Shown here piece after piece: positions 2,213-3,970 of a stretch of DNA of 4,529 nt; within the stretch, counting starts at the first letter, position 1; the number at the start of each line of letters is the position of its first letter. This stretch comes from a virus (taxonomy: Duplodnaviria > Heunggongvirae > Uroviricota > Caudoviricetes): positions 1-4,529 of the IMG/VR virus record IMGVR_UViG_3300029060_000152; one strand, 5' to 3'. Under the pieces are notes generated by a model. It was not told where the DNA came from, did not search any database, and saw only the letters and a list, made by a program, of their open reading frames with translations. Made by a program: the position numbers and the translations under genes.

Positions 2213-2905
2213 ATGAACATAGGAAATCGAGTCAGACAACTTCGCCAGGCGAAGAACATGAAAATCGCCGATCTCGCTGAAGCAATAGGAGTGGATGCGG
2301 CGAATATCTCGCGCCTCGAAACAGGTAAGCAGAAACAATTCACTGAACAAGCCCTGAGTAATATTGCCAGGAGCTTAGATGTTGATATTGCTGATCTCTT
2401 TACCTCAGACCTCAAAAGTAATACTGTATGTAAAAACAGTATTAGTGAGGATGTTGCGCAGGTGAAGGATGTATTCCGTATTGAAATGCTGGATGTCAGT
2501 GCCAGTGCGGGAAATGGCCTTATCCAGGGCGGTGATGTCATTGATGTGATTCATGCCATTGAATACAGAACTGATAATGCTGTATCGATGTTTGGTGGAC
2601 GACCAGCAAATCACATTAAAGTTATCAACGTTCGTGGGGACAGTATGTGTCCAACCATTGAGCCAGGAGATCTCATCTTCGTTGATATCAGTATCAATCA
2701 GTTTGATGGGGATGGTATATATGTATTTGGTTTTGATGATAAAATTTACGTCAAACGACTGCAAATGATACCTGATAAACTGCTGGTAATTTCTGATAAT
2801 CAGATTTACCGCGAATGGGGAATTACCAGCGAAAACGAACACCGGTTTATGGTCTTTGGAAAGGTCTTAATCAGTCAGTCACAGACCCTTAAGCGACACA
2901 ATTAA
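2213..2905 (+). CDS. cI: CI-like prophage repressor: N-terminal HTH_XRE DNA-binding domain plus C-terminal LexA/S24-family autopeptidase domain (SOS-inducible)
   Basis: 230-aa ORF. HTH: …VRQLRQAKNMKIADLAEAIGVDAANISRLETGK…. S24 domain with Ser in VRGDSMCPTIEPGDLIFV (Ser144) and Lys in YVKRL (Lys181), the same 37-residue Ser-Lys spacing as LexA, and a candidate Ala-Gly cleavage site at Ala99-Gly100 (DVSASAGNG). No SD upstream of the ATG. Followed by an intrinsic terminator. Confidence 0.9.
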   Translation: MNIGNRVRQLRQAKNMKIADLAEAIGVDAANISRLETGKQKQFTEQALSNIARSLDVDIADLFTSDLKSNTVCKNSISEDVAQVKDVFRIEMLDVSASAGNGLIQGGDVIDVIHAIEYRTDNAVSMFGGRPANHIKVINVRGDSMCPTIEPGDLIFVDISINQFDGDGIYVFGFDDKIYVKRLQMIPDKLLVISDNQIYREWGITSENEHRFMVFGKVLISQSQTLKRHN

Positions 2906-2926
2906 CCCCCTACCTCAACATCAATT

Positions 2927-2950
2927 AGCCACCAGAAGGTGGCTTTTCAT
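2927..2950 (+). terminator. Rho-independent terminator downstream of the cI-like gene
   Basis: Perfect 7-bp stem AGCCACC (2927..2933) / GGTGGCT (2938..2944) with 4-nt loop AGAA, followed by TTTT (2944..2947, the first T shared with the stem), 22 nt after the cI stop codon. Confidence 0.65.
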
Positions 2951-2960
2951 TACCCACCAA

Positions 2961-3014
2961 ATTGCTTATCTCGCAATAAAACACTTGCATAATGCGCAAC
3001 TTCATTTTATCTTT
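2961..3014 (+). promoter_or_regulatory. OL-like operator pair with a candidate rightward early promoter
   Basis: Two 15-bp sites matching the OR copy: TTGCTTATCTCGCAA 2962..2976 and TTGCATAATGCGCAA 2985..2999 (both TTGC-N6-CGCAA). Promoter hexamers are ambiguous: CATAAT at 2988..2993 is a possible -10, or -35 TTGCAT 2986..2991 with -10 TATCTT 3008..3013 (16-bp spacer). Position matches OL/PL in lambdoid phages. Confidence 0.55.
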
Positions 3015-3423
3015 CTCTCCAGACCTACAAACAAGGTACTAACAAAATTTGGTTGTAACACGGCGTATGGCACATGCGTCGTTAGCGGTCTGGGGACGTT
3101 AAAGGGGACAATCCACTCCTTGCTCGGGCAAACAAACCAGGTAGCCGGAATGTGCAAGTCAATGAGGATGCTGATAAGACGCCTAACCAGCGTGGCGATC
3201 CGGTTTGACGCCTGGGAAGAGACCAGGGTGCAACGATGAGGGCATTTATGGAACCGCGACAAAGTGTGGTGCCGTAACTGGCTAAGTGCTCTCAGCGTTG
3301 TGGTAATCCGCGAAATGGCGCGGCGGTAAGTATGGCGGGGTTACTCTTTCCCCGTTGAGGACACCGGATTGTCAGGTTGACCATACGCCTGAGTGACAAC
3401 CCCACCACAACAGCCACTGCTTT

Positions 3424-3470
3424 GGCGGTACCAGTTTGTACACTTGCTTCCGGCTGGTACCGCTCTTTTT
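3424..3470 (+). terminator. Strong hairpin plus T-tract: intrinsic terminator or antitermination-controlled element in the early-left leader; the tail resembles a boxA sequence
   Basis: Perfect 10-bp stem GCGGTACCAG (3425..3434) / CTGGTACCGC (3454..3463) with a 19-nt loop, followed by TCTTTTT (3464..3470). The sequence CGCTCTTTTTACAA (3461..3474) resembles boxA (GCTCTTTAACAA type) as recalled from memory. Confidence 0.5.
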
Positions 3471-3474
3471 ACAA

Positions 3475-3557
3475 AACAGAGAAGAGCATCACCGGACGAC
3501 GGGCTCATAACCCAATCCATCCGGGCGGCAGTCACCGCAGGTGTTCTTCTCTGTTTT
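3475..3557. other. Long imperfect inverted repeat (about 16-bp stem in RNA) of unknown function in the leader of the rightward genes
   Basis: AACAGAGAAGA (3475..3485) is the exact reverse complement of TCTTCTCTGTT (3545..3555). Pairing extends through 3486..3490 / 3540..3544 with two G-U wobbles, enclosing about 49 nt. Flanked by T-rich sequence on both sides. Confidence 0.4.
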
Positions 3558-3607
3558 GTGGAGAAACCAACCGACCTTGCAGGGTCGATATGATGAGGAG
3601 CAGCAAA

Positions 3608-3970
3608 ATGGCTAGCGAACGCAGTACTGATGTGCAGGCATTTATCGGGGAGCTGGACGGCGGCGTATTTGAAACCAAAATCGGCGCTGTTCTCAGTGAA
3701 GTCGCTTCCGGTGTGATGAACACGAAAACCAAAGGTAAGGTCTCGCTCAACCTGGAAATCGAACCATTTGATGAGAACCGTGTGAAAATCAAACACAAAC
3801 TCTCATATGTTCGCCCGACTAACCGCGGGAAAATTTCCGAAGAAGACACCACCGAAACGCCGATGTATGTCAATCGCGGTGGTCGCCTGACTATTCTGCA
3901 GGAAGACCAGGGACAATTACTGACTCTTGCCGGTGAACCTGACGGAAAACTCCGCGCAGCAGGTCATTAA
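3608..3970 (+). CDS. Hypothetical phage early protein, about 120 aa, function unknown (possibly YfdP-like of CPS-53-type prophages; unverified memory)
   Basis: ATG at 3608 is preceded by SD AGGAG (3596..3600) with a 7-nt spacer; in-frame alternative starts are ATG 3590 and 3593. Stop TAA 3968..3970. The ORF-track start at 3377 is a TTG and gives an implausible N-terminal extension. Confidence 0.7.
   Translation: MASERSTDVQAFIGELDGGVFETKIGAVLSEVASGVMNTKTKGKVSLNLEIEPFDENRVKIKHKLSYVRPTNRGKISEEDTTETPMYVNRGGRLTILQEDQGQLLTLAGEPDGKLRAAGH

Follow-up and report, generated by a model that had tools for sequence, protein, structure and literature searches.

A conserved, unannotated structured RNA and its partner modules in the cI–yfdP interval of lambdoid prophages

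What occupies the 600 or so nucleotides (nt) between the left operators of a lambdoid prophage and its first early-left gene, if no protein is encoded there? The question is raised by the window examined here, a stretch of 4,529 nt of viral DNA (IMG/VR record IMGVR_UViG_3300029060_000152) that represents the immunity region of a lambdoid Escherichia coli prophage of the SfV/mEp460 type; its plus strand runs in the direction from the repressor gene cI to yfdP. An initial annotation, made from the sequence alone, had left three choices for positions 3000–3607: a long regulated leader, a non-coding RNA, or the remnant of a decayed gene. The first two turn out to be compatible, the interval being best described as a leader of the early-left promoter (PL) that is composed of conserved, structured RNAs, while the third is contradicted by selection on base pairs. 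In the reading favoured here, to which a probability of roughly 0.55 is given, positions ~3020–3607 form a terminator-gated, untranslated leader of the cI-repressed PL operon, and this leader carries exchangeable, stable RNA cargo. The initial annotation overlooked three things: the modularity of the segment, the identity of one of its hairpins as a terminator, and the presence of a tRNA-linked RNA family in its 5′ third.

That the segment has no protein-like frame is borne out. The six-frame listing of open reading frames (ORFs) for 3000–3607 yields TTG or GTG starts only: 84 amino acids (aa) at 2985–3239 and 66 aa at 3393–3593 on the plus strand, the latter spanning a terminator and a long hairpin, and 86 aa at 3002–3262 and 41 aa at 3292–3417 on the minus strand. 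The listing also gives a 5′ extension of yfdP from 3377 (plus) and a shadow ORF antisense to yfdP (3341–3796, minus). No ORF of 3000–3607 has a match in Pfam, and RefSeq/PGAP leaves the cI–yfdP interval unannotated in a chromosome with 100% identity over this stretch. Some phage records carry hypothetical proteins in this interval, and PHROG matches were obtained to two function-less families, phrog_3651 and phrog_33599, for the ORFs at 3341–3796 (minus) and 3393–3593 (plus); these look like families built from spurious calls of the same ORFs. Homologues of the segment differ by 1-nt and other non-triplet insertions or deletions, and their substitutions compensate within stems, with 13 and 11 doubly changed pairs in the two alignments tested (the core RNA and the downstream hairpins, see below). 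A decayed protein gene was rejected on the absence of Pfam matches, the non-triplet indels and the selection on base pairs (no full translated search of all proteins was made).

The segment is indeed richer in GC (0.528) than cI (0.421), the whole window standing at 0.484. A putative transcript of 588 nt (3020–3607) folds at −235 kcal/mol, against −196 ± 7.5 kcal/mol for dinucleotide shuffles (z = −5.2; 0 of 100 as good). When the modules are taken one by one and compared with mononucleotide shuffles, z is −4.6 for a hypervariable hairpin, −5.7 for the terminator, −7.0 for the long hairpin, and only about −1.2 for the core and for a cassette RNA; the structures of these last two therefore rest on conservation (in the core also on covariation), not on energy.

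The setting of the segment is that of an operon leader. Behind the cI stop codon, the hairpin AGCCACC-AGAA-GGTGGCT is followed by the T-run TTTTCATT (2927–2950, plus; terminator-like on both strands). Two left operators (OL) come next, TTGCTTATCTCGCAA at 2962–2976 and TTGCATAATGCGCAA at 2985–2999, strandless 15-mers of the form TTGC-N7-GCAA; the OL-like operators recognised earlier are thereby upheld, since the motif occurs at exactly three sites in the window, the remaining one at 2178 in the cro–cI intergenic region. The predicted PL (2985–3013, plus) has its −35 box, TTGCAT (2985–2990), within OL1, a 17-nt spacer and the −10 box TATCTT (3008–3013), which would place the start of transcription near 3020. 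This assignment was read by eye and by comparison across immunity types; a consensus promoter scan of 2850–3700 returned nothing above threshold, PL included, and other immunity types have stronger promoters at the same position, for example TTGACA-17-TACATT. The order of cI stop, hairpin with T-run, operators and promoter is common to all immunity types compared. At the far end lies yfdP, the first early-left gene (RefSeq WP_000135680.1), with its Shine–Dalgarno sequence GAGGAG at 3595–3600 and its ATG at 3608 (3595–3610, plus). Because the cI terminator, operators and promoter precede it and yfdP follows, 3000–3607 is taken as the leader of the repressor-controlled early-left operon. The operon continues with yfdQ, yfdR and an exonuclease gene, with xis and int further on in related phages; no N gene is annotated in it in this prophage, in Stx2a_WGPS2 or in mEp390.

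The first module of the leader is an unnamed structured RNA family, here called the core (3054–3236, plus; 146.5 bits, E = 2e-46 with covariance model R1). It measures 163–190 nt and comprises five helices and two putative pseudoknots. All family features are present in the window: hairpin P1 (3061–3068/3074–3081) with its GGCAC loop; AGCGGUC; P2 (3090–3093/3137–3140), which encloses a variable insert; an invariant 19-nt strand, GGUAGCCGGAAUGUGCAAG (3140–3158); P4 (3179–3182/3190–3193), whose 7-nt loop YUMACCA is paired to GGUK; and P5 (3211–3215/3223–3227) with the loop GAAGAGA (3216–3222). The putative pseudoknots would join 3070–3073 to 3152–3155 and 3185–3188 to 3202–3205.

The hand-derived structure was scored on a non-redundant alignment of 34 sequences. 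Standard pairs fill 95.9% of the cells, 13 pairs have changed on both sides, and the covariation score is 0.258, compared with 0.03–0.065 when the partners are slid by 1–3 columns; none of 500 shuffles reaches the observed values. One putative pseudoknot co-varies (loop CACC:GGUG, with AACC:GGUU in the lineage of the window), and the other, between GCAC of the P1 loop and GUGC, is invariant and hence without covariation signal. The G-U pairs are compatible with the plus strand only, and this, together with the same-strand tRNA genes that abut the element elsewhere, identifies the plus strand as that of the core. A search of Rfam 15 (cmscan, E ≤ 1), which the initial annotation had proposed, matched no family in 3000–3607; the sole match in the whole window was mir-5880 at 579–653, a spurious one caused by 15-bp tandem repeats. 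The models for C4/IsrK, DicF, T-box, riboswitches, AgvB/AsxR and GOLLD/ROOL gave no match in the window, and ARAGORN found no tRNA or tmRNA gene in it. The core is a new RNA family, its five helices being kept by compensatory change.

Its distribution extends well beyond lambdoid phages. BLAST of the segment retrieved homologues of 3047–3303 in other phage types: in P1 and P7 the core lies directly 3′ of tRNA-Ile(CAU) and 5′ of ban, and in phiV10/epsilon15-like phages directly 5′ of tRNA-Arg(UCU). There it belongs to a small, oppositely oriented unit, flanked by the terminase and portal genes, with a terminator of its own and, ~100 nt upstream, a consensus TTGACA box. Stx2-converting phages also contain it. 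A 16-mer scan of IMG/VR gave at least 120 loci and at least 102 distinct 270-nt versions. Among the matches listed, 43 of 125 have a same-strand tRNA gene abutting the core, either Arg-UCU (+164) or Ile-CAU (−171), and a terminator-like hairpin follows at 100–650 nt in 112 of 124. The layout of cI, terminator, OL, PL and leader surrounds at least 59 of the 124 IMG/VR core instances and involves at least seven operator/promoter types, in which the core starts 0–60 nt past the predicted PL start. There is one core locus per phage record; the window, whose sequence covers the early-right (PR) operon over its first 2 kb, likewise contains a single match.

An independent search of 185,579 species genomes, anchored in a different part of the element and confirmed with the covariance model, produced 23 true matches, all but one in Enterobacteriaceae or Erwinia, and the exact 19-mer GGUAGCCGGAAUGUGCAAG is present in 22 of the 23. 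The exception in taxonomy is a 1753-bp contig (JAIIAN010000430.1, core at 168.6 bits) that bears the label of a Bacillota metagenome-assembled genome and is enterobacterial in sequence; it is probably due to contamination or mis-binning. Among complete E. coli genomes, 1833 of 5426 (34%) contain the core, with 554 plasmid-borne copies, and it is annotated in none. A full-text literature search with sequence strings of the core retrieved no paper, and the same is true of the cassette and the long hairpin. An invariant 19-mer and five compensated helices, shared by three unrelated phage types, argue for purifying selection rather than decay, and the invariant strand points to a conserved host partner. 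Comparisons of the 19-mer with CsrA, signal recognition particle RNA, 6S and 5S look-alikes were unconvincing and were dropped.

The core and its neighbours do not always travel together. In P1, the core occurs without the other modules and with no strong terminator behind it. In SfV and SfII, a protein-coding insert (orf33 of 99 aa, or a 68-aa ORF) and an opposite-strand ORF take its place, and a third type of cassette, the terminator and the long hairpin are retained (SfV locus L293, 960–1600; SfII locus L003, 3090–3760). Phage Evi and the Rac prophage of K-12 have no core. Since the core can stand alone, the cassette can occur without it, and inserts can replace it, these modules behave as cargo, and the core is best regarded as an accessory RNA gene that is open to exchange. 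The expectation that this interval serves as a hotspot for accessory cargo agrees with such exchange, and conservation among related prophages, on which the initial annotation had made its proposal depend, extends even across unrelated phage types. Two further observations concern individual phages. SfII keeps a truncated remnant of the first core hairpin, ACACGGTGCATGTGTCGT. The P1 ban operon (locus L004, 282–383 and 839–2499) contains, besides the core, tciABC, three tRNA genes and a ‘dicF-like region’, and BLAST matches the core element at one further, weaker site in P1 records.

The second module is a hypervariable hairpin domain (3231–3300, plus), whose interior is variable and is enclosed by a long helix, CAACGAUGAGGGCA.../...GUGCUCUCAGCGUUG. 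CAAC...GTTGTGG ends are present in 79 instances; the interiors range from 47 to 133 nt, and closing helices of 17–18 bp differ in sequence and keep their pairing (GAGAGCA/UGCUCUC, AAGAGCA/UGCUCUU, GAGAGCGCAC/GUGCGCUC, AAAAGGCG/CGCCGUUU). When antisense targets of the interior (3240–3288) were sought in all phage records, homologous loci alone were matched. The helix ends in ...CGUUG-UGG, and the next base is +1 of tRNA-Arg in epsilon15-like phages.

This junction opens a third, tRNA-like slot, which is filled by tRNA-Arg(UCU) in epsilon15-like phages, by the body of the small RNA (sRNA) sRNA-17 in mEp460-type prophages, and in the window by a cassette RNA of 115 nt (3297–3411, plus) with an acceptor-stem-like closing helix, GUUGUGGU/ACCACAAC. 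The consensus fold of the cassette has 31 pairs, four of them with double changes. Its 124 IMG/VR instances are ~85–100% conserved, and only 23 have the core upstream; the ~100 core-less contigs mostly carry it before kil, as in the leader of phage Evi, whose 5′ module is a different one. The cassette is further found at loci L127 (2501–2616), L128 (2501–2623) and L188–L291, and at 85% identity in the record of Actinobacillus phage vB_Apl-pPE4, an odd host for an enterobacterial element. GUUG at 3297–3300 has two alternative CAAC partners, one in the hypervariable closing helix (3231–3235), the other on the 3′ side of the cassette helix (3404–3411); as both helices compete for it, a folding switch or a processing determinant is possible.

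Two strong hairpins had been noticed in the segment, and both are real. The first is an intrinsic terminator, tL (3424–3470, plus), composed of GCGGUACCAG, a 19-nt loop, CUGGUACCGC and UCUUUUU; its stem, 3425–3434/3454–3463, pairs in 10 of 10 positions before TCTTTTT and shows compensatory changes from A-U to G-C and from C-G to A-U. A consensus terminator scan missed it because of the 19-nt loop. The second, the long hairpin (3471–3559, plus), begins one base after the U-tract of tL and has 25-nt arms (3471–3495/3535–3559), with ~20 paired basal positions and two inner hairpins; it is 98% paired, with double changes in two pairs (helix 2). It may serve as an RNase III-type site, as the lambda N leader has a comparable hairpin. 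A small hairpin, CGACC-UUGCAG-GGUCG (3570–3589, plus; helix 6), in which four of five pairs are doubly compensated, stands just before the yfdP ribosome-binding site and forms the 3′ limit of the conserved leader, beyond which the first genes of the homologues differ. Taken together, the three hairpins are 94.9% paired, with 11 doubly changed pairs and a score of 0.175 against 0.03–0.06 for slid controls. The check for covariation across homologues suggested in the initial annotation thus finds compensatory changes in the core, the terminator, and the long and small hairpins.

Transcripts from homologous leaders have already been described, under other names. sRNA-17 of E. coli K1 RS218 is a 193-nt RNA defined by 5′ and 3′ rapid amplification of cDNA ends (RACE) and by northern blotting (Sun et al. 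2020, PMC7719688). Placed by means of the supplementary alignment and primers of that paper, it is the cassette plus terminator of an mEp460-type leader, spanning CGUUGUGG to the terminator U-tract. It lies on the plus strand, because the 5′-RACE primers and the northern probe are antisense, and the 3′-RACE primers sense, to the cI-to-yfdP strand. The mEp460-type locus and the window are identical in core, hypervariable hairpin, terminator and long hairpin. The sRNA-17 body (GAAUGCGCAGGCUGAUGCGCGAAAGAC...) does not occur in the window, where 3301–3403 is a different cassette, so that the sRNA-17 paper would class this copy as ‘degenerative’; CGUUGUGG is present at 3296–3303, and the 5′ end there is mapped in homologues. 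In the wild-type RS218 lysogen, yfdP received 0.5 normalised reads, and 47 after the cassette had been replaced by a resistance marker (PMC7719688); in the data of the same study, an amplicon reaching from core to cassette gave signal in the lysogen.

The sRNA-17 paper differs from the present account in taking the core for a promoter and not an RNA, and in not recognising the 3′ end as the terminator of a PL leader. The ArcA-bound sRNA-17 ‘promoter’ fragment of Sun et al. (primers ~3046–3293) is the core RNA region, and the claimed ArcA regulation of sRNA-17 may need to be re-read. The GTTA-N-GTTA ‘ArcA site’ at 3082–3101 (GTTAGCGGTCTGGGGACGTTA) falls inside the core RNA.

The second described transcript is KilS (b4833, 98 nt), which was detected by RNA interaction by ligation and sequencing (RIL-seq) with Hfq and by northern blotting, and which lies in the 5′ untranslated region of kilR in the Rac prophage (K-12 MG1655, 1418405–1418502, minus strand; locus L292, 2406–2503). 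Like the window, it presents the 3′ strand of a hairpin of the hypervariable type (…GGGAGUGCGCCUCCGGUUGU) followed by a terminator, GGCGGCAUCAG…CUGAUGUCCGCC-CUUUUU, in an early-left leader position, on the same strand and just before the first downstream gene. Unlike the window, Rac has neither core nor cassette, and KilS may own a promoter. The small ORFs ydaG and ydaF and the opposite-strand sieB stand between racR and the KilS hairpin, so that the module is mid-operon in Rac; kilR itself is silenced by NusG-dependent termination (PMC5793797). A terminator of the form GGCGG...CCGCC-CUUUUU is common to the window, sRNA-17 and KilS, according to alignments with compensatory changes. With a 3′ half of the hypervariable type and a homologous terminator, KilS is the same kind of leader-derived RNA as sRNA-17, a kinship that is drawn by neither paper. 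Discrete RNAs that end at the terminator and accumulate in lysogens, and silent downstream genes, have been established in these homologues by others. By sequence, the cassette and tL of the window would constitute a leader sRNA of the KilS/sRNA-17 type.

Operators, terminator, module boundaries, pairings, strand and distribution are established by this analysis; the mechanism proposed on this basis is put conditionally in respect of the start site, the processing, the logic of insulation and read-through, and any function in trans. Transcription from PL would begin ~7 nt past the −10 box TATCTT, and in lysogens low read-through from cI may contribute as well. The RNA would fold module by module into the pseudoknotted core, the hypervariable hairpin and the cassette RNA, and most polymerases would halt at 3424–3470, giving a primary RNA of ~450 nt. 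Cleavage within the 3′ strand of the hypervariable helix or close to it, or re-initiation of the 3′ part there, would then yield a core RNA of ~240–280 nt and a cassette RNA of ~175 nt with the terminator at its end, the counterpart of sRNA-17 and KilS. Together, tL and the 25-bp hairpin would shield yfdP–yfdQ–yfdR...xis–int from read-through out of the repressor gene and from promoter leak. After induction, PL would be strongly transcribed, and those polymerases that pass the terminator would express the early-left genes; the long and small hairpins may govern how stable the yfdP message is and how well it is translated.

Several points weigh against this proposal. Passive read-through as the sole route to xis and int is an assumption, and an operon that lacks N yet has a strong terminator before it invites an active mechanism of antitermination. 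A pseudoknotted core of 165 nt with a 19-nt invariant strand, positioned at the PL start in many immunity types, exceeds the needs of mere cargo. The loop of tL is, at 19 nt, unusually large. The transcript evidence comes from homologues only, and the window and sRNA-17 have different cassettes; for sRNA-17 the 5′ end was placed by RACE alone, and that of KilS has been ascribed to an independent promoter, not to processing.

The competitor that survives best, although it is considered improbable, follows from the first of these points: the core might be a processive antiterminator acting in cis, like HK022 put or Bacillus EAR, that carries polymerase past 3424–3470 and later terminators and so replaces N. 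The put RNA is ~70 nt long, with two stem-loops, a V-shape and a short triplex, and has copies at both PL and PR (PMC9378689). The resemblance lies in position: both are RNA elements just downstream of PL in a phage without N, with terminators and early genes following, and a start 0–60 nt past the predicted PL start in at least seven immunity types is alike to that of putL (PMC9378689). The missing N annotation in this prophage, Stx2a_WGPS2 and mEp390 also favours the idea, as does the presence of terminators at variable distance, followed by co-oriented genes, in both lambdoid and epsilon15-like contexts; here the terminator stands before xis/int, and the variable spacing fits a processive mechanism rather than an attenuator. 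Casjens and colleagues have remarked that an N-less lambdoid phage, with a CI closest to the mEp460 type, ‘may have’ put-like RNA antitermination (PMC12315714), so that read-through of early terminators in such phages is recognised as an unsolved matter. In an extension of the same idea that is equally doubtful, a single RNA class would act at PL of N-less lambdoid phages, before ban in P1, and past the tRNA terminators of epsilon15-like phages, with the 19-mer as the surface for polymerase or Nus factors.

Other observations speak against it. The core is unlike put in its 163–190 nt, its five helices with putative pseudoknots and its single copy per phage, with none on the PR side. Model R1 found nothing at E ≤ 1 in the HK022 immunity region (20000–32000), and short-word blastn against HK022 gave chance 8–14-mers only, none of them between PL and nun. 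Known put activity suppresses termination in cis and is blocked by mutations in the zinc-binding domain of rpoC. For the core, the indirect signs are unfavourable: the temperate phages SfV and SfII have no intact core and nevertheless have the same terminator, long hairpin and yfdP-type operon, Evi and K-12 Rac manage without it, and in the RS218 lysogen the core-containing transcripts appear to end at the terminator with yfdP nearly silent. Its location just before ban in P1, with no strong terminator after it, and its frequent fusion to tRNA genes would also be unexpected of put. Resemblances to RfaH ops, GGCGGTAC at 3423–3430 and GGTAGCC in the core, were compared by eye with GGCGGTAGCGTG and rejected, as they lack key positions.

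A lambda-type arrangement is a related candidate. In lambda, the PL leader contains nutL, an RNase III-sensitive hairpin and then N; boxB has a GAAGA loop, and boxA reads CGCUCUUA. The window shares with lambda the OL/PL region, an RNA element near the 5′ end and a large hairpin before the ribosome-binding site of the first gene, and by eye the P5 loop GAAGAGA recalls lambda boxB and the tail CGCUCUUUUUACAA recalls boxA or rrn boxA, both in a loose and partial way. It differs in having no annotated N gene and an intrinsic terminator before the first gene, and its boxA-like string is the terminator’s own 3′ arm and U-tract. Moreover, the core occurs in P1 and epsilon15-like phages without a common candidate binding protein. 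A lambda-type nut site was rejected on the missing N annotation and the partial nature of the boxA and boxB resemblance. The string CGCUCUUUUUACAA occupies 3461–3476, running from the 3′ arm of tL through the U-tract into the long hairpin, and is kept as CUCUUUUUACA in divergent homologues.

The link to tRNA genes suggests other comparisons. Phages carry several tRNA-adjacent RNAs without assigned function, namely GOLLD, ROOL and the T4 species 1 and 2 RNAs. The core resembles them in being structured, conserved, encoded by phages and prophages, and often placed beside co-oriented tRNA genes; it differs from GOLLD and ROOL in its much smaller size and its restriction to Enterobacteriaceae and Erwinia, and no Rfam model matches it. 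DicF, from the leader of the dicB operon in the Qin prophage, is another prophage sRNA from a long untranslated stretch of an immunity operon, but it has no sequence kinship with the window, where its Rfam model finds no match. The prophage sRNAs Pas, AgvB and AsxR belong to the late-gene region and were set aside as unrelated. The closest analogues of the core are functional and not homologous: put by position, and the tRNA-adjacent phage RNAs by their tRNA linkage.

The same linkage could mean that a phage tRNA operon has left the modules behind as relics, decayed tRNA genes and processing helices that persist by hitch-hiking and recombination and have no function beyond the terminator. This is a good deal less probable than antitermination. 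It accounts for tRNA-Arg(UCU) in the cassette slot of epsilon15-like phages, for tRNA-Ile(CAU) abutting the core in P1-like phages, and for the acceptor-stem-like helices of the cassette and hypervariable domain, one interior of which (locus L097) has a T-arm-like GGTTCGATTCC. It is at odds with a 19-mer that is invariant in 22 of 23 genomes, with five helices compensated across three unrelated phage types, and with a cassette that is ~85–100% conserved in more than 120 contigs.

Less probable still is a riboswitch or attenuator, sensing a ligand or tRNA, in which the core would control the formation of the terminator at 3424–3470. A conserved, pseudoknotted RNA upstream of an intrinsic terminator is what such a device would look like, the loop UCACCA pairs with GGUG in a manner that recalls recognition of tRNA 3′ ends, and GUUG (3297–3300) is shared by two mutually exclusive helices. 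No riboswitch or T-box model of Rfam matches at E ≤ 1, however; the gap between core and terminator is 190 nt here and is filled elsewhere by variable modules, even a whole tRNA; P1 has no terminator; and no conserved alternative pairing was seen between the core and a terminator arm.

Finally, a functional RNA on the minus strand or a frameshifted protein-gene remnant can scarcely be credited: the sRNA-17 paper does give a sequence that starts with AAAAGAGCGG and places it on the RS218 negative strand (PMC7719688), and some phage records do have hypothetical proteins and two ORFs PHROG families, but AAAAGAGCGG... is the reverse complement of a terminator, the orientations of the RACE primers and northern probe, the G-U pairs and the tRNA orientation fix the plus strand, and Pfam, PGAP, the non-triplet indels and the compensation in stems all speak against a gene.

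Elsewhere in the window there are four Pfam-supported genes: a replication-protein gene (13–954, minus), a CII-like gene (1299–1862, minus), cro (1855–2115, minus) and cI, encoding an S24-peptidase repressor (2213–2905, plus). The CII-like gene is broken by 20 N (masked bases, 1486–1505). Inside the replication-protein gene, at 582–645, a 15-bp unit, CAGATTTTGACGGGT, is present in 4.3 tandem copies, which look like the origin iterons of an O-like gene.

For phage and E. coli biology, the analysis provides a new target for RNA research, namely a covarying RNA, unannotated and without an Rfam family, that 34% of complete E. coli genomes contain, as do P1, Stx2-converting and epsilon15-like phages. 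It reinterprets KilS and sRNA-17 as the terminator-ended tails of homologous modular PL leaders, and the supposed ArcA-regulated ‘promoter’ of sRNA-17 as itself a conserved RNA. On the question of how N-less lambdoid phages express xis, int and other early-left genes past a leader terminator, it defines a candidate cis element together with natural core-less controls (SfV, SfII, Evi and Rac). If the core did prove to be an antiterminator, it would found a new class of phage RNAs, independent of N and directed at the transcription elongation complex of the host.

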